Part shown: piece by piece, positions 1,718-18,699 of the stretch
Numbering within the stretch: position 1 is the stretch's first letter
How the letters are laid out: each line of letters opens with the position of its first letter
Source: an uncultured virus (IMG/VR IMGVR_UViG_3300025902_000018)
Taxonomy: Duplodnaviria; Heunggongvirae; Uroviricota; Caudoviricetes
Length of the DNA stretch: 20,000 nt
Virus record (IMG/VR): IMGVR_UViG_3300025902_000018
Direction: 5' to 3' (one strand)
The notes under the pieces: model-generated
Told to the model about the DNA's origin: nothing
What the model saw: the letters and a program-made list of their open reading frames with translations, nothing else
The model's database searches: none
Made by a program: the position numbers and the translations under genes

Positions 1718-2935
1718 GTGAGCCATAAAGCCTTTAAACTTAGACTAGATCCCACACCAGAACAAACAGTCTTGTTGAACAAGACTTTTGGTTGTGTCCG
1801 GGCCATCTGGAATCAAAGAGTCTATAGCTTCAATAATTGGAGTCCAGGAACTGACACAGTAGAACCTACCATCAAGGAGTTAAAGGTTATCTATCCTTGG
1901 TTGTCTGAAGTTCCTTACAACGCATTAGAACAGAAACTCAACGATTGGCGGTCATTTAAGTCCCAATTCTTCAACAAGAAAAGGAAAAAGAAATTAGGAA
2001 GACCAAGCTTTAGAAGTCGTAGAGGACGTCAATCTTTTAGGTTATCTGTGAATGGATTTTCCTTTAAAGATAATCAAGTAGTGGTCTCTAAAATAGGTAA
2101 ACTAAATCTTGTTGGTTATGATTTATCAATTTTACCTTTAGAGACTTGCAAGTCTATCACCATCTCTAAAGACCCTTCTGGGAAGTGTTTTTGTTCTATT
2201 CTTCTAGAAGTTACTATAGAACCTAAACCATTGACCGGTCAGATGGTTGGTATAGATTTAGGCATCAAAGATCTTTACATTCTTTCAGATGGTCAAGTTG
2301 TTGAAAACCCGAAGTGGTACCATGAAAACCAAGTGGTGCTGAAGAAGGCTCAACAACGGTTAGATAGAAAGGTTAAAGGTAGTAAACGGTATGAAAAGCA
2401 GCGAATCAAGGTAGCTAAGGTCTATGAGAAGATAAAGAACCAGAGAAACTACTTCCTTCACAACATCTCTTCTTCCTTAGTGACCAATTATGATCTTATC
2501 TGTCTTGAAGATTTGAACGTCTCTGGAATGGTCAAGAACCACTGTCTCTCTAAGGCCATCCAGAACGCTTCATGGTCTTCTTTTGTATCCATGTTGACCT
2601 ACAAGTGTGATTGGTATGGAAAAACCTTGGTAAAGGTTGATCGGTTCTTTCCTTCCTCTAAGACTTGTTCTTCCTGTGGCTTCAAGATGGTCAAGATGCC
2701 TTTGTCTATTCGAGAATGGATCTGTCCTTCTTGTGGGTCAAGACACCATAGAGATCATAACGCTGCAAAGAACATTCTCCAGGAAGGCTTTAGAATCATA
2801 ACTGGTCAGGAGTTTGCTAGTTTCCCTAAACTAGCTTCGGCAGAGTGTGTCGAATACAGACGTGGAGAGGTTGTAAGTCTATTTGATGCTCGTCATCACT
2901 TAGCATCCTTCGTGAAACGTCTAGAAGTTATATGA
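1718..2935 (+). CDS. tnpB: RNA-guided endonuclease TnpB
   Basis: N-terminal KAFKLRLDPT..KTFGCVRAIWN HTH; RuvC-I GIDLG, RuvC-II LEDL, Zn ribbon CSSC/CPSC, RuvC-III RDHNAAKN. Catalytic D/E/D residues are intact. Confidence 0.95.
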   Translation: MSHKAFKLRLDPTPEQTVLLNKTFGCVRAIWNQRVYSFNNWSPGTDTVEPTIKELKVIYPWLSEVPYNALEQKLNDWRSFKSQFFNKKRKKKLGRPSFRSRRGRQSFRLSVNGFSFKDNQVVVSKIGKLNLVGYDLSILPLETCKSITISKDPSGKCFCSILLEVTIEPKPLTGQMVGIDLGIKDLYILSDGQVVENPKWYHENQVVLKKAQQRLDRKVKGSKRYEKQRIKVAKVYEKIKNQRNYFLHNISSSLVTNYDLICLEDLNVSGMVKNHCLSKAIQNASWSSFVSMLTYKCDWYGKTLVKVDRFFPSSKTCSSCGFKMVKMPLSIREWICPSCGSRHHRDHNAAKNILQEGFRIITGQEFASFPKLASAECVEYRRGEVVSLFDARHHLASFVKRLEVI

Positions 2936-6329: not shown

Positions 6330-6497
6330 ATGTTGAAGATCATTATTGAACGTGAACTAAGGGACAAGGATGTCAGTGAATTGAACTTGGAACTGTGTAG
6401 AGCCTATGCCAGATCTATCTCTGACTATATTAAGAATGAAAAGGAGGTAGGGCAAAAAAACCCTAAACTCCTTCTGGAAAGGAAGCTCTATGTCTGA
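6330..6497 (+). CDS. Small hypothetical protein
   Basis: Fills the gap between thyX and terL-N; stop overlaps the next start; start uncertain. Confidence 0.4.
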   Translation: MLKIIIERELRDKDVSELNLELCRAYARSISDYIKNEKEVGQKNPKLLLERKLYV

Positions 6498-6867
6498 CGA
6501 CACCGCATATAAAGGGAATAAGTCGTTAAAGAAGGCGTATGAGGATTTTGAGTTTACTGAAGAACAAGTCCAAGAGTTTGTTAAGTGTGCTAAGGATGTA
6601 AACTACTTTGCTTCTAATTTTGTCAAAGTAGTTCATCCAGATAGGGGTCTCATTCCCATCAAACTCTATGATTACCAACAGGAGCTTCTATCCCACTTTA
6701 AAGAAAACAGGAACTGTATTGTTCTGTCTTCCAGGCAAAGTGGGAAGTGTTTAGGGGGGGATACACCACTGTCAGTAAAGAGAACCGAGGACTCAGAGCC
6801 CCTTACGCTGACCTTTGAAGCTCTTTTTGAGACCCTTAAAGGTTGTAGTGGATTCCATCTTCAATAA
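6490..6867 (+). CDS. terL: Terminase large subunit N-terminal fragment (86 aa) fused to a split-intein N part
   Basis: gp17-like YKGNKSLKKA, KCAKDVNYF, adenine-binding LYDYQ and Walker A SRQSGK, followed directly by CLGGDT. Confidence 0.9.
   Translation: MSDDTAYKGNKSLKKAYEDFEFTEEQVQEFVKCAKDVNYFASNFVKVVHPDRGLIPIKLYDYQQELLSHFKENRNCIVLSSRQSGKCLGGDTPLSVKRTEDSEPLTLTFEALFETLKGCSGFHLQ
6748..6867 (+). other. Atypically short N-intein (39 aa)
   Basis: Block A CLGGDTPLSV followed by LTFEALFETL and a stop; no block B. Confidence 0.85.
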
Positions 6868-8224
6868 AGATTCTAGGAAGAGAATCCCAAATAGAGTTCA
6901 CATAGGCATCGTGAAAGTCGGATCTGGGTGTTTCTAAGTCTACCAGTTCTTTAAACCCTTCATTGGTAAGGAGCCAGGAAAACAACACCAAGGTCATTAC
7001 TAGATCATCATGCTGGCCAGTACTGGCTTCAAATGACTTCTTTTTCCGTACCAAAGTAGACATCTCTTTGACAATTTCAATATCATTAAGAACGATCCAG
7101 TTCTTCTTAAGAAGGTCTATGAGCATTTCAAGACCTAACTTCTTGACCGGGACTGTCGTCTTTACTCCAAACTTAGTCCCTTCTTTAAAGAAGGCTGAAC
7201 TTACCTTCTGTTTTTTAATGGAGGTCTTAATTATGTTTTCATATTCATAGTCTCGATATAACGGTGAAGCAATATCATGAATATTGACTTCAATAAGTAA
7301 CCAGGCTTCATGATACATCTTGGCAAAACGCCAGACCAGTTCAGTAAACTGAAACAGATTAGTTTTATTACTTCTTAAGGTAAATACTACAGTATGAGGT
7401 TGTTGCTGCTCATTCTCTTGTTTTCCTACCCTAAAGATGGTCATAACTGAATAGTCTTCCCCTATTCCCTCAGCAATATCTACCACCCCGATATAGACCT
7501 CTTTAGGTTTAGGCTCTTCAAAGATCTTATACTCTTGACTTTGGTGAAGAGGGTTAGTATACTCAAGATGTTTAATCAACTCTGAGGGGATTACGGAATC
7601 TACGAACCCAAAAAATTCATTCTTAAACTCACGATTGAATCTGGCTTCACCTATATCCATGATAGTAGATTTAACCCACTGTTCATCACGTCCAGGAACG
7701 GACTGCCAGTTTACTTCAAAGGGGGCAAACGTATTCTCATTCTTTTTAGCGGAAGACCAAAGTTCATAGAAGTGATTAAGATCCTTTGCTGAAGAAACCA
7801 TGATAATTTGAGTCTCCTTACCTGAGGCAATAGTAGGGTAGACTGATGAATAAAACTCATTAAAGATGTTATTGGGGATAAACGCACAATTCTTAGAAGC
7901 AATATTACCCTCTAGATAGAACACCTCACCTTCTACACCTTGAATCGAATAAAGAGGGGTGATGCCTAACGTATGTGTTTTCTTTACCACCTGTTCAGAG
8001 GAAGTAATAAAGTCGCCAACCAGTAGGTCAGCAAGTGTTTTTTCAGTCCCCGAAGAGTCTAAGAGAACGTGATCGTGAGATCCTGTAATAGTTCTTCCTG
8101 AAGATAAACTAAGGGAGATTAAGCAGTTTGAATAAGTCTTTTTAAGGGCAGTGAATGGTTTAAATCCAGAGGGTGTCTTAATAAGATACCCTTTATTCAT
8201 AACGGTATGAGGTGCTAAATTCAT
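6836..8224 (-). CDS. terL: Split-intein C part (112 aa) fused to the terminase large subunit C-terminal fragment (post-Walker B ATPase plus nuclease)
   Basis: After SKN comes CAFIPNN..SVYPTIASGKETQIIMVSS..LNHFYELW, WQSVPGRDEQW, then nuclease motifs VVDIAEGIGEDYS, IEVN and GQHDDLVM. Confidence 0.92.
   Translation of the reverse strand: MNLAPHTVMNKGYLIKTPSGFKPFTALKKTYSNCLISLSLSSGRTITGSHDHVLLDSSGTEKTLADLLVGDFITSSEQVVKKTHTLGITPLYSIQGVEGEVFYLEGNIASKNCAFIPNNIFNEFYSSVYPTIASGKETQIIMVSSAKDLNHFYELWSSAKKNENTFAPFEVNWQSVPGRDEQWVKSTIMDIGEARFNREFKNEFFGFVDSVIPSELIKHLEYTNPLHQSQEYKIFEEPKPKEVYIGVVDIAEGIGEDYSVMTIFRVGKQENEQQQPHTVVFTLRSNKTNLFQFTELVWRFAKMYHEAWLLIEVNIHDIASPLYRDYEYENIIKTSIKKQKVSSAFFKEGTKFGVKTTVPVKKLGLEMLIDLLKKNWIVLNDIEIVKEMSTLVRKKKSFEASTGQHDDLVMTLVLFSWLLTNEGFKELVDLETPRSDFHDAYVNSIWDSLPRIFIEDGIHYNL
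7889..8224 (-). other. Long C-intein of an atypically split intein
   Basis: IKTPSGF, block B ITGSHDH, ADLLVGD, block F LYSI, block G FYLEGNIASKN followed by +1 Cys; no block A. Confidence 0.88.
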
Positions 8225-8657: not shown

Positions 8658-9329
8658 TTAAACTTCAGCTACTAGGCCTACTTCAGTTCCAGTAAATTCA
8701 GTATCAGACCCAGAAGTAACATTCTCCCCATTCACATCCTTAGAAGTCCAATATTGGTATCTTAAGGTAACTGGGAACTCTTCAATGGAATCGTTCTGGT
8801 CATAGGCTAGGGCGATTTCACCTAGTCGAGTTGGGAATGAATTCACCATCTCATAGGTGTAGAGAACATTGTTTCTCCTGTCTAACTGTTCTACTTTAAA
8901 GTCAATAAAGTAGTTGAAGTAATCTCCGGCCCCACCTTGGAAATGACCCCCATTTACTTTACCATTGTAAGTTTCACGGTTCTCTTCATGGAGATTCATG
9001 CCATTCATCCAGTGTTCGAAGAATGACCTTACCCCGAAGTCTTGTGAGTTGAAACAGGTAATTTCCCAAGGATCAAACTCCCGATCCCCATACTCATAGA
9101 ACTTGCGCCCCATGAAAGGGACGGCGATTTCCCCTAGATTTGAGCCAGGAAGACTTGCCCCTTTGCAATAGAAGTAGAACAGGTTTTCTTTACCGCCAAG
9201 ATACTTCTTAGTGATAAAGGGTTCTGCCTGTTCCTTCTGCATAGACACCCTAAACAGAGTGGGTCTAACAGAAGTGAAGTTGTTTTTGAATTCATTGATT
9301 CCAGACAATCCCCGATATGATGTTGCCAT
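8658..9329 (-). CDS. Tail tube protein (gp19-like)
   Basis: RPTLFRV, CKGASLPGSNLGEIAVPFMGR..GDREFDPWEIT, VEQLDR, FPT..GEIALAYD..IEEFPVTLRYQYW; AAGGA SD. Confidence 0.9.
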   Translation of the reverse strand: MATSYRGLSGINEFKNNFTSVRPTLFRVSMQKEQAEPFITKKYLGGKENLFYFYCKGASLPGSNLGEIAVPFMGRKFYEYGDREFDPWEITCFNSQDFGVRSFFEHWMNGMNLHEENRETYNGKVNGGHFQGGAGDYFNYFIDFKVEQLDRRNNVLYTYEMVNSFPTRLGEIALAYDQNDSIEEFPVTLRYQYWTSKDVNGENVTSGSDTEFTGTEVGLVAEV

Positions 9330-9388: not shown

Positions 9389-10120
9389 CTAAGTTCTCGT
9401 CGACCCACCTCTAGTAATTCCCCCAGGAGTCCAAGTAGGCGAGATAATAGTCCAACCATTGCCACCCCCACCTCCACGCCATATTTCAGAATCTGCTGGT
9501 CCCCCTTGTCCTTCTGAACTTCCACCAGTCCCAGGAATACCCGCGTTAAGCTCATCGGTCTCCCACCACTGGTACTGCAATGAAACTGTAAAGGTTTCTA
9601 TGCTATCATTTTCATCGTAATCCAATTTAATATCACTGCACTCTAGGGGAAACACCCCAAAGAACTTGTACTTCTTTAACGGATTCTCTCGCCTATCCAA
9701 CTGAGTAACGGTTAGCTCATCCATAAATATGTCAAAAGCCGTGGTCACTGTGGAGGAATTAGTTTCTATCTGATAGTTCTTCTCATTGAGATTGATGTTA
9801 TTCATCCATTCTTCAAAGAAGTTACGAATAGCAAAATCTTGTGAGTTATAGAACTCCAAGGTTAGAGTATCAAATTCACGATCTCCAGAATCGTAATACA
9901 TTCGCCCTAGGTAGGGTATCTGAAGAGGTGTTATTTTTGATGCAGGTAGGGTAGCAGATTTACAATAAATAAAGATGTCAGTAGTTTTATCTTTAGGGAT
10001 CCAAGTGTTCTTATAGAGCTTAGATTCCCAAATTTGAGGAAAATCTACTCGAAACCTATTGGGTCTAACCGAAGTAAACTTAGATTTGAAGGCGGCTATG
10101 GAACAAGATCCTTTACTCAT
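9389..10120 (-). CDS. Second gp19-like tail tube paralog with a Gly-rich C-terminal tail
   Basis: RPNRFRV, CKSATLPAS, PYLGR..GDREFD, QLDRR, IETFTVSLQYQWW; GGAG SD before ATG at 10120. Confidence 0.85.
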   Translation of the reverse strand: MSKGSCSIAAFKSKFTSVRPNRFRVDFPQIWESKLYKNTWIPKDKTTDIFIYCKSATLPASKITPLQIPYLGRMYYDSGDREFDTLTLEFYNSQDFAIRNFFEEWMNNINLNEKNYQIETNSSTVTTAFDIFMDELTVTQLDRRENPLKKYKFFGVFPLECSDIKLDYDENDSIETFTVSLQYQWWETDELNAGIPGTGGSSEGQGGPADSEIWRGGGGGNGWTIISPTWTPGGITRGGSTRT

Positions 10121-10147
10121 TGATGCTCCGAAAGAGAGGAAAAACAA

Positions 10148-16536: not shown

Positions 16537-16716
16537 ATGAAGCCACAACGTTCTTTACTGTCTAAGAGAAGTCATTATTCAAGTTTGAATGGTCAACGAA
16601 ACCAATGGGCTGAGCTGTCACAGAGGAAAGACGAAAGTAACCAAAAACGATCTCCCCAAAAAGTGCTTGACAAATCCGACCCGATCTACTATAATTTGAA
16701 AATTGATAAGGGGTAA
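16537..16716 (+). CDS. Small hypothetical protein (59 aa, below the ORF-track cutoff)
   Basis: AGGAG SD; MKPQRSLL...IDKG*. Confidence 0.4.
   Translation: MKPQRSLLSKRSHYSSLNGQRNQWAELSQRKDESNQKRSPQKVLDKSDPIYYNLKIDKG
16667..16695 (+). promoter_or_regulatory. Consensus sigma70 early promoter
   Basis: Perfect TTGACA-17 nt-TATAAT, preceded by the same CCCAAAAAGT as the promoter at 14718. Confidence 0.85.
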
Positions 16717-16720
16717 TGTT

Positions 16721-17476
16721 GTGCAGATTCAGGTAGCCTCAGACCTTCACCTTGATATCAATGGTACTATTTCTGGAATTTGCTCGTATAAGAGCATTCA
16801 TTCATCTATTCTAAATTCTAGGGGAAAATCAGATACAGTCCTAATCCTAGCTGGAGATATCTGTAATCCTAGATTTTATTCGCAGTTGTTAGATGTATTA
16901 AGTCCATTGTGGCGGCATATCATTATAGTTCCAGGAAATCATGAGTTTTATGGGTGGTCTATTGCTGAAGGACTTGACAGTATGAAGACTTCAGCCAGTA
17001 ACTATTCAAATGTAAGTATCCTTGATAAAGCAACGGTTGAGATTGACGGAATAACCTTCATTGGAGCCATAGGCTGGGCACCCACCAAACAAATTCCTAA
17101 CATAGAACGATTTATCAATGATTTTTCTTGGATAAAGGATTTTAAGACCCATACCCACAGGTGTCAGGAACTTCACGATGAAAGTATGGAGTGGTTACGG
17201 TCAACCTTGATAATGACAGAGACTCCTAAGGTAGTCGTTACTCATTTTGGACAACTATCACTTCCTGTCCCTAATAAGTTTATCGGCAGCTTAGTGAACT
17301 CATACTTCATTACTGGGGCATTAGATGATTGTTCGGATAAACCAGAACTATTCATTCATGGCCACACCCATGTCAGTTACTCTATCAAACGTAATTCGTA
17401 CGGAATATTATGTAATCCATTAGGATATGGTACTGAGAATTTACAGTATTCACCAAATCTGATTCACACTCTTTAA
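16721..17476 (+). CDS. Calcineurin-like metallophosphoesterase
   Basis: SDLH, AGDI, PGNHE, VTH, HGHTH, CNPLGY; GTG start after AAGGGG. Confidence 0.88.
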   Translation: MQIQVASDLHLDINGTISGICSYKSIHSSILNSRGKSDTVLILAGDICNPRFYSQLLDVLSPLWRHIIIVPGNHEFYGWSIAEGLDSMKTSASNYSNVSILDKATVEIDGITFIGAIGWAPTKQIPNIERFINDFSWIKDFKTHTHRCQELHDESMEWLRSTLIMTETPKVVVTHFGQLSLPVPNKFIGSLVNSYFITGALDDCSDKPELFIHGHTHVSYSIKRNSYGILCNPLGYGTENLQYSPNLIHTL

Positions 17477-17841: not shown

Positions 17842-18081
17842 ATGTCAGAACCCGTTTGTTTTCGCCTAGATTCTTTTCCCGACGTCCCCTTCTATATTGC
17901 TGATATTGCCGATAAAGAAGAAGATGTTGAAATTTCAATTTCAACTAAGGATCCTGATCAAGAACATGTGTTAGACAATCCCCTATTCAGGGAAGAAGTG
18001 ACTAAGTTTTTGGAAACCATGATCAATGAAGCCGTGAAGAACGCTAAAGAAAAGTTAGATTCTTCAGAAGAGAGTGAGTAA
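17842..18081 (+). CDS. Hypothetical protein
   Basis: TAAGGA SD, 79 aa, acidic. Confidence 0.6.
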   Translation: MSEPVCFRLDSFPDVPFYIADIADKEEDVEISISTKDPDQEHVLDNPLFREEVTKFLETMINEAVKNAKEKLDSSEESE

Positions 18082-18699
18082 ATGATAACTATTGCCATAG
18101 GAGGAGACAATGTCCGAGGTGAACAGCTGTATTTCACCTCGGACACGTAGACCCATTTTTACCATACCAATATTTTAGCTTACTGTAAGAATAGAGAGTT
18201 CGTCTCCTTAGAGGATCATAATGAGAAGTTGGTTGAATTGTGGAATGAGGTTGTTTCCCCAGACTCCATTATAATCCATCTAGGAGACTTTGCTTTTGGC
18301 AACCCAGGAAAGGCTTGCTCCATTCTTCCTAAACTGTCAGGGAAGAAGATTCTAGTTCCAGGCAATCATGATGCTAAGAATCTAAAGTCACCCGAGTTTA
18401 AATCGTTCTGGAGGCATATTACCGGACCTTTATTGGAGTTAGACCTTAAAGAGTTGTTTTTAGTCTTGTGCCACTTCCCGATTGAATGTTGGAATCACAG
18501 GTACCATGGGTCTATCCATCTTCATGGTCATTGTCATTCTAATAGGGAGCAAGGGTTAAAGCCTAGACAACTTAAGAATAGACTGGATGTAGGAGTAGAT
18601 TATCATAACCTGAAACCAATATCATTACCCGAAGTTCTTGCTGAAGTGACCAGGAATAATGATGAATTGATGACTCAAACTTTAGACCAAGTGTTTTAG
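18082..18699 (+). CDS. Metallophosphoesterase with an in-frame TAG at 18148 (recoded gene or pseudogene)
   Basis: Single frame: MITIAIGGDNVRGEQLYFTSDT*THFYHTNILAYC..WNEVV..HLGDF..GNHD..CHFP..HLHGHCH..DVGVD. Confidence 0.75.
18111..18145 (+). promoter_or_regulatory. 13-bp perfect stem-loop abutting the in-frame stop
   Basis: TGTCCGAGGTGAA-(9 nt loop)-TTCACCTCGGACA. Confidence 0.7.

Follow-up and report, generated by a model that had tools for sequence, protein, structure and literature searches.

Putative hairpin-driven stop-hop over a UAG codon in the active-site motif of a phage metallophosphoesterase

Very few natural cases of programmed translational bypassing are known; those listed in two preprints are the homologues of T4 gene 60, the Hau3 terminase and the yeast byps (10.1101/2022.08.31.505936; 10.1101/2024.12.09.627546). 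In the gene 60/MobA family of topoisomerase genes, an insert lies within a conserved gene, a stop directly follows the take-off codon and the landing codon matches it, and the endonuclease cassette of MobA replaces the 5' part of the gene (10.1101/2022.08.31.505936; 10.1101/2024.12.09.627546). The MobA insert blocks self-cleavage, and the MobA endonuclease has been lost in several phages (10.1101/2022.08.31.505936). A stem-loop 5' of the gene 60 take-off codon is proposed to complete its pairing, pulling the mRNA and pushing the ribosome (PMC5009743; 10.1101/2022.08.31.505936; 10.1101/2024.12.09.627546). A smaller event is known from synthetic E. coli stop-hops, in which a single amino acid results from nine bases (Weiss et al. 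1987, cited in PMC5009743); as described in that 2016 review, these are low-level and have no stimulators, and a natural in-frame stop-hop was not known to it (PMC5009743). In the main texts of open-access papers and preprints we found no report of bypassing in a phosphoesterase.

The 20,000-nt stretch analysed here (the window) forms the end of a 76,864-base virus contig with an estimated completeness of 43%. The terminase matches of the record are T4-like, and sequence matching it was found in sludge and wastewater runs. Close to the end of the window, on the plus strand, lies a calcineurin-like metallophosphoesterase gene of the aq_1665-like type. Its N-terminal coding segment (18082..18147) comprises 22 codons and opens with an ATG at 18082 that abuts the TAA of the preceding ORF. 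The segment ends in F-T-S-D and a likely take-off codon, ACG (Thr, 18145..18147). A UAG stop follows immediately (18148..18150), and then a likely landing codon, ACC (Thr, 18151..18153), and the His codon (CAT, 18154-18156) at which decoding would resume into the remainder of the enzyme (18154..18699). The frame thus reads Y-F-T-S-D-T-stop-T-H-F-Y-H around the junction. After the TAG, T-H-F-Y-H plus 181 codons stay open to a TAG at 18697-18699 and hold all later phosphoesterase motifs (GDF, GNHD and HLHGHCH), as the sequence-only reading had stated.

The gene matches Pfam Metallophos (PF00149), phrog_547 and the structure of aq_1665 (PDB 1xm7), and contains the Metallophos elements GD, GNH[DE] and a late H..GH.H. 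Compared with other aq_1665-like enzymes it has the same motifs, and the sole difference is the interruption: the first motif, D-x-H, is broken in the window DNA and intact only given a hop. At the corresponding place, 1xm7, the one relative found with a solved structure, reads S-D-T-H. The expectation of D-x-H at this position holds across the family, as 108 of 120 homologous proteins have the motif with one residue between Asp and His; the remaining 12 comprise three matches of other spacing that lie elsewhere in N-truncated proteins and nine proteins without the motif in their first 70 residues. TAG is an ordinary stop in this virus (it terminates 20 of the 68 long ORFs of the record), and no tRNA gene was found in the incomplete 77-kb record, which rules out TAG reassignment as in alternative-code phages. 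A second, uninterrupted metallophosphoesterase of another subfamily is encoded 600 nt upstream (16703-17476, plus strand).

We propose that the window element works in the manner of gene 60 bypassing but belongs outside the MobA/topoisomerase family. It resembles that family in the insert within a conserved gene, the stop right after take-off, the matched landing codon and the stem-loop 5' of take-off, and its relatives resemble MobA in an endonuclease cassette that replaces the 5' part of the gene and is lost in some phages. The differences from the published descriptions are nevertheless substantial. The gap is 6 nt (5-14 nt in the family) as against 50 nt in gene 60 and 20 nt in the shortest clade named, the host gene is a phosphoesterase instead of a topoisomerase, take-off would occur on Thr, Leu, His or Ile codons instead of Gly, and the stem closes at the take-off codon and not 9 nt before it. 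The stem-loop at the take-off and A site of gene 60 is absent, a six-base gap leaving no room for it; when 18060-18220 is folded, the main stem lies entirely upstream of take-off and a weak 5-bp hairpin follows. The nascent-chain signal of gene 60 (KKYK, codons 13-29 of 46) is also absent from the 22 codons before take-off, and this segment is 8-32 codons long, with unrelated sequences, in 54 of the 57 alleles that have a start. Because these other gene 60 signals are missing, a hop driven by the hairpin is favoured. Finally, the endonucleases beside gap-bearing relatives belong to several families (phrog_4645, HNH and GIY-YIG), whereas gene 60 is linked to the MobA cassette.

Other known systems resemble the element in part. 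Its geometry (matched codon, stop, matched codon) is identical to that of the synthetic stop-hops, and hops of +5 and +6 both have counterparts in the phosphoesterase family; unlike the low-level synthetic events, there is a conserved hairpin here, and the active site would depend on the hop. The candidate in the terminase of Streptomyces phage phiHau3 likewise has a short gap, with a 5' stem-loop and an internal Shine-Dalgarno sequence as proposed stimulators, but it is triggered by a hungry UUA codon and tied to host development, and we noted no endonuclease link in its description (PMC10732093). The mitochondrial byps of Magnusiomyces are also mobile inserts skipped in translation that tolerate imperfect take-off and landing pairs; they differ in length (27-55 nt), in their trigger (an unused sense codon), in having the hairpin within the gap and in being read by mitochondrial ribosomes (PMC5009743; 10.1101/2022.08.31.505936).

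The six bases are neither an error nor a peculiarity of a single sample, because contigs from three other studies (runs X4, X6 and X17) span the site with ACG-TAG-ACC unaltered and without an indel, and yet differ elsewhere by 2, 17 and 7 substitutions, respectively. This support consists of assembled contigs, not raw reads; the site is uncovered in runs X10 and X15 and falls in a hole in X13. A further assembly with the six bases was found (L146). A sequencing or assembly error, which the sequence-only reading had kept as an alternative, is thereby ruled out.

The arrangement recurs in related viruses. One of 80 related loci (L010, 37% identity) encodes D-L-stop-L-H behind an 11-bp stem. Viral sequences were scanned with Asp and His set nine free bases apart; phosphoesterases made up 18 of the 34 loci, each of them with a stop between matched codons. 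Of 15 chance loci that have a stop at their centre, only 1 shows matched codons. Fixed-length scans yielded 102 loci (63 distinct), from which 38 six-base alleles remained after removal of 25 non-phosphoesterases: 28 with Leu, four with Thr, three with Thr-to-Ile and three with His-stop-His one codon later. Scans with variable gaps found 79 loci, of which 63 were distinct; 31 were discarded, and 20 further alleles were gained. The resulting 58 distinct gap alleles, window included, have gaps of 5 (12 alleles), 6 (38), 8 (5), 11, 12 and 14 nt (one each, L203 having the 12-nt gap); these are counts over related alleles and, because of that relatedness, not of independent events. All three stops are used (TAA in 28, TAG in 26 and TGA in four). 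The codons before and after the stop share their first two bases and the amino acid in 52 of 58 alleles, and the landing is near-cognate in the other six (four Thr to Ile, one Thr to Ala, one Ser to Ala). The landing codon was never set by any scan pattern; the stop after take-off was built into every pattern except that with nine free bases. Conservation of a matched codon, a stop and a matched codon in relatives, as anticipated by the sequence-only reading, is therefore seen with Leu, Thr, His and Ile, and the wobble mismatch between ACG and ACC that it had flagged is usual, fully identical codons being found in 25 of the 58 alleles.

The gap may differ in length even near the window. A loose end from run X17 that corresponds to window 18102-18148 lacks one base at the junction relative to the window and has its match, over 30 letters only, in the P0003/P0124 cluster; it likely represents a 5-nt gap in a sister clade, with a UGA overlapping the landing codon, and suggests that the gap changed frame within the window's own clade. 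One 90% protein cluster (P0010/P0127) contains intact and N-truncated members together, and an allele with a 5-nt gap (L251) resembles this cluster and has a 5' arm like that of the window. A pattern scan of GTDB bacteria and archaea gave three matches, all chance matches outside phosphoesterases; the pattern, being restricted to F-T-S(TCN)-D with a gap of 6 nt, is no proof of absence. A similarity search of a phage collection revealed no cultured phage with a gap among 12 records opened: L183-L186, L265 and L266 are intact, and L267-L272 have no phosphoesterase beside the endonuclease. Among 469 candidates in the virus record with a stop and matched codons, the window element has the strongest upstream fold, and five others passed -15 kcal/mol. 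The in-frame one of these five (C1:48795) was rejected as two adjacent genes.

These alleles bear directly on conventional readthrough, in which the UAG would be decoded as an amino acid and D-T-x-T-H tolerated. The gap is in frame here and in 39 of 58 alleles, and insertion of a residue would leave D-x-H whole in the three His-stop-His alleles, two of which have no strong stem. However, the gap is out of frame in 19 of the 58 alleles, and likely also in the 5-nt form of the sister clade, so that readthrough cannot be the mechanism of the phosphoesterase gap family. Three sense codons occur in none of the 18 phosphoesterases from the scan with free bases, the one-residue spacing is kept in 108 of 108 motif-bearing homologues, readthrough has no need for matched codons, and TAG is an ordinary stop in a record without a detected tRNA gene. 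We consider readthrough in the window very unlikely.

The hairpin provides the second line of evidence for a hop. The sequence-only reading had described a perfect 13-bp stem ending on the first base of the ACG codon. In the window, the stem-loop (18111..18145, plus strand) indeed has 13 perfect pairs (18111-18123 with 18133-18145) and a 9-nt loop, closes on the first base of ACG and uses the F-T-S-D codons as its 3' arm; it is far more stable than expected by chance (z = -4.45, equalled by 0 of 200 shuffles), and the 161-nt stretch around it has z = -3.25. The perfect length is not constant across strains, as a common strain variant (18123 A>C) lacks the innermost pair, which leaves 12 bp conserved. 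A contiguous stem of at least 9 bp is detected in 22 of 38 six-nt alleles and in 0 of 44 intact controls, with median folding energies of -20.8 and -4.0 kcal/mol, respectively. Intact relatives with the same hairpin, named earlier as an observation that would count against a hop, are thus not what we found: intact homologues lack the strong hairpin. L265, the intact sister of L217, also folds here, into a stem that is less stable and not continuous (-9.8 versus -24.3 kcal/mol, z = -2.46, 4 of 200 shuffles).

Position and covariation tie the stem to the take-off codon. Among six-nt alleles with stems of at least 8 bp, 23 of 27 stems close at position -1 or 0 of take-off, and in locus L106, where the hop would occur one codon later, the stem is longer by that same codon. 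When the 5' arm was anchored with both wobble positions excluded from the ranking, an arm was found in 53 of 58 alleles versus 4 of 44 intact controls. In every one of the 53 anchored alleles the wobble base of the Ser codon forms a Watson-Crick pair, and each of the four pair types occurs (28, 19, 3 and 3); the wobble base of the Thr codon is Watson-Crick paired in 45 and forms G-U in a further five; none of the four anchored controls shows wobble pairing. The covariation anticipated in relatives is therefore present. Five alleles have no anchored stem (L101, L115, L145, L233 and L246). Three of them (L101, L115 and L145) have no strong stem, place just 8-10 codons ahead of take-off, carry a strong Shine-Dalgarno sequence at the start site and may use another stimulator.

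Taken together, the comparisons support the earlier proposal of a hop that restores D-T-H, and we consider it very probable that a hairpin-driven stop-hop, with two-of-three pairing at the landing codon, gives an intact D-T-H enzyme. With UAG in the A site, the peptidyl-tRNA(Thr) would release ACG, slide over six bases, re-pair with ACC, chiefly requiring two of three pairs, and resume at His, yielding an enzyme whose metal-binding motif is whole. At take-off, the 3' arm of the stem would lie inside the ribosome and the hairpin would be unable to form fully; as the ribosome advances, the hairpin would gain pairs and serve as a ratchet, either driving the hop or locking it, in the manner proposed for the gene 60 5' stem-loop. 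With a ribosome footprint of 6, 9 or 12 nt, folding of the RNA outside the footprint gives -7.1, -4.2 and -4.2 at take-off and -20.0, -12.9 and -7.1 after landing, respectively, so that the six-base move would gain 3-13 kcal/mol of pairing depending on the assumed cover. The element may have arrived with a homing-endonuclease cassette that took the place of the gene's 5' end and whose insert would protect the allele against cutting; in the window lineage, the endonuclease would then have been lost and the hop kept.

Selection and phylogeny argue against the view that the gene is dead, a recent insertion having inactivated it without leaving a product. The four closest proteins (82, 67, 65 and 55% identical) lack the D-x-H segment in their calls and retain every downstream motif; for P0002-P0005, N-truncated calls and one 30-nt loose end suggest gaps as well. 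In a quick tree, which omits six short alleles and the 20 alleles with gaps other than 6 nt, the window protein and its four closest relatives form a group with 99% support and no intact member, and 15 label changes, at least six of them forced, are found among 32 gap, 101 intact and five truncated rows. Downstream of the gap, dN/dS between gap alleles is 0.04-0.16 (median 0.11) in the 10 measurable pairs of 35 close pairs; the remaining 25 show synonymous saturation, with dN of 0.05-0.23. The substitution pattern shows purifying selection downstream of the gap among gap alleles. All three later motifs are present in 43 of the 58 alleles, six are full-length with one pattern missed and four are cut by the end of the locus; only five (L091, L095, L145, L156 and L195) have a short, broken downstream frame. 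These five broken frames, and an enzyme that is probably accessory, would fit a dead gene, and the closest intact allele of the window clade was not found, so that dN/dS of its own lineage is not measurable at the DNA level. The low dN/dS among gap-sharing alleles, the exchange of one stop for another (TAA in L092, TGA in L122) and the stem covariation are nevertheless difficult to reconcile with inactivation, and the recent inactivating insertion raised by the sequence-only reading now appears highly improbable.

Endonuclease genes mark the probable origin of the gap. By PHROGs, the ORF directly upstream is an endonuclease in 17 of 54 gap alleles and in 1 of 42 controls. The 17 comprise 11 of the 35 six-base alleles for which upstream DNA was available (eight phrog_4645, two HNH and one GIY-YIG, two of these being fragments) and 6 of 19 alleles with other gap lengths. 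In locus L217, whose gap is 5 nt, a segment of about 1 kb made up of the endonuclease, a new 5' end, the hairpin and the gap occupies the place where the intact, 82%-identical sister L265 has about 55 nt, and in L122 the endonuclease of L092 is gone while the hairpin and gap are retained. These gene neighbourhoods make it likely that the gap originated as a homing-endonuclease cassette, in the manner of T4 mobA/gene 60. For the window we infer this origin from the relatives, because neither an endonuclease gene upstream in the window nor a homologue by tblastn in the record (43% complete) was found; for the same reason, the window would be a post-loss allele.

Some neighbouring genes add to this diversity. 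Two upstream ORFs (L201:545-1471 and L230:1557-2387) belong to phrog_23051 and are 33% identical to each other, and one of the pair has weak similarity to the HNH protein of L100; we take them by eye to be a further endonuclease type and left them out of the endonuclease counts. In L228, the phosphoesterase N-terminus continues an endonuclease-like reading frame without a change of frame, with 311 codons to take-off, and a hop could yield a fusion. Homologues of the cassette endonucleases are also located between two DNA polymerase ORFs in Proteus phage PM135 (L267) and Providencia phage PR1 (L268).

A hairpin at a junction with an endonuclease nearby is also a feature of mobile introns, and matched flanking bases could steer a polymerase skip; a micro-intron or a skip at the hairpin might thus remove the gap before translation. 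A group I or group II intron finds no support, as no Rfam core matches the window or eight loci, and no 5' exon precedes the endonuclease in the comparison of L217 with L265. The gaps start with an in-frame stop and match codon by codon, features visible to translation only. The lone RNA-library contig over the site retains the six bases and shows no joint, a weak observation with 30 letters on one side, one short of the threshold for bridging, and DNA as a possible source. We attach very little probability to such RNA-level repair and retain the hop during translation as the preferred reading.

An internal GGAGGAG upstream of the junction was another element of the sequence-only reading. This Shine-Dalgarno-like sequence is present (18100..18106, plus strand, 4 nt 5' of the stem) and could be a landing aid or the ribosome site of an out-of-frame ATG, but it is not general: a Shine-Dalgarno-like match of at least 5 nt within 14 nt of the stem occurs in 21 of 53 gap alleles, some of which are ordinary start sites, in a count confined to gap alleles. 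Gene 60 has a mini Shine-Dalgarno sequence about 6 nt 5' of landing; in the window, a GGA located 7 nt 5' of the landing codon sits within the stem, and it is not retained in alleles with TCC, TCT or TCA. The out-of-frame ATG behind GGAGGAG opens a 22-codon frame (+1; 18110..18178, plus strand) and is possibly a former cassette start. This same start, ATG-TCC-GAG, is in frame in L201 and L242. Where a Shine-Dalgarno-like sequence and an ATG stand together at the 5' foot of the stem, the ATG is in frame in L201, L242 and L247, and out of frame in L251, L256 and the window. The stem-foot ATG may be an old start or open a short regulatory frame whose translation would open the hairpin. Least probable of all is a split gene, in which a 22-residue peptide ending in S-D-T leaves the ribosome at UAG, translation begins anew downstream and the two parts assemble, for although the Shine-Dalgarno-like motif 5' of the hairpin could be brought near the junction by loop-out and Leu alleles have CUG/CUN there, the window landing position offers no ATG, GTG or TTG and a restart leaves the codon matching (Thr, Leu, His and Ile, in four gap frames) unexplained.

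Other parts of the window also deserve mention. The terminase large subunit is encoded in two convergent halves on opposite strands (6490-6867, plus, and 6836-8224, minus; PHROGs), the first ending in about 39 residues from a Cys and the second opening with about 112 residues that end in K-N before a Cys. By eye this is a putative, atypically split intein, which would call for an inversion or for protein trans-splicing; no intein was matched in Pfam or NCBIfam. A 405-residue ORF (1718-2935, plus strand) is presumably, by eye, a TnpB of IS200/IS605 elements, and two adjacent similar ORFs (8658-9329 and 9389-10147, both minus strand) presumably encode tail-tube-like paralogues, also judged by eye.

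The suggestion of the sequence-only reading that the element tunes enzyme level is a guess, a homing-endonuclease cassette being the better-supported origin. More broadly, and with slightly less than even confidence, we propose that a single re-forming hairpin alone, without a nascent-peptide signal or an A-site structure, supports efficient natural in-frame stop-hopping and constitutes a minimal portable module with which several unrelated homing endonucleases mark an active-site motif, and that it may be kept after endonuclease loss to gate enzyme level (for example, by the supply of release factor or Thr-tRNA) or to shield the gene from co-infecting endonuclease carriers. If the hop is real, the locus is a natural case of a decoding trick known from laboratory constructs, and selfish endonucleases could interrupt an active-site motif at nearly no cost. 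Genes with such gaps get annotated as truncated, which is the case for the four closest proteins in the databases, and part of what looks like readthrough may be hopping. With one signal in common and gaps ranging from 5 to 14 nt, the natural alleles, which number in the dozens, would allow a direct test of a debated point, namely whether a stem that forms at the ribosome exit suffices for forward movement.
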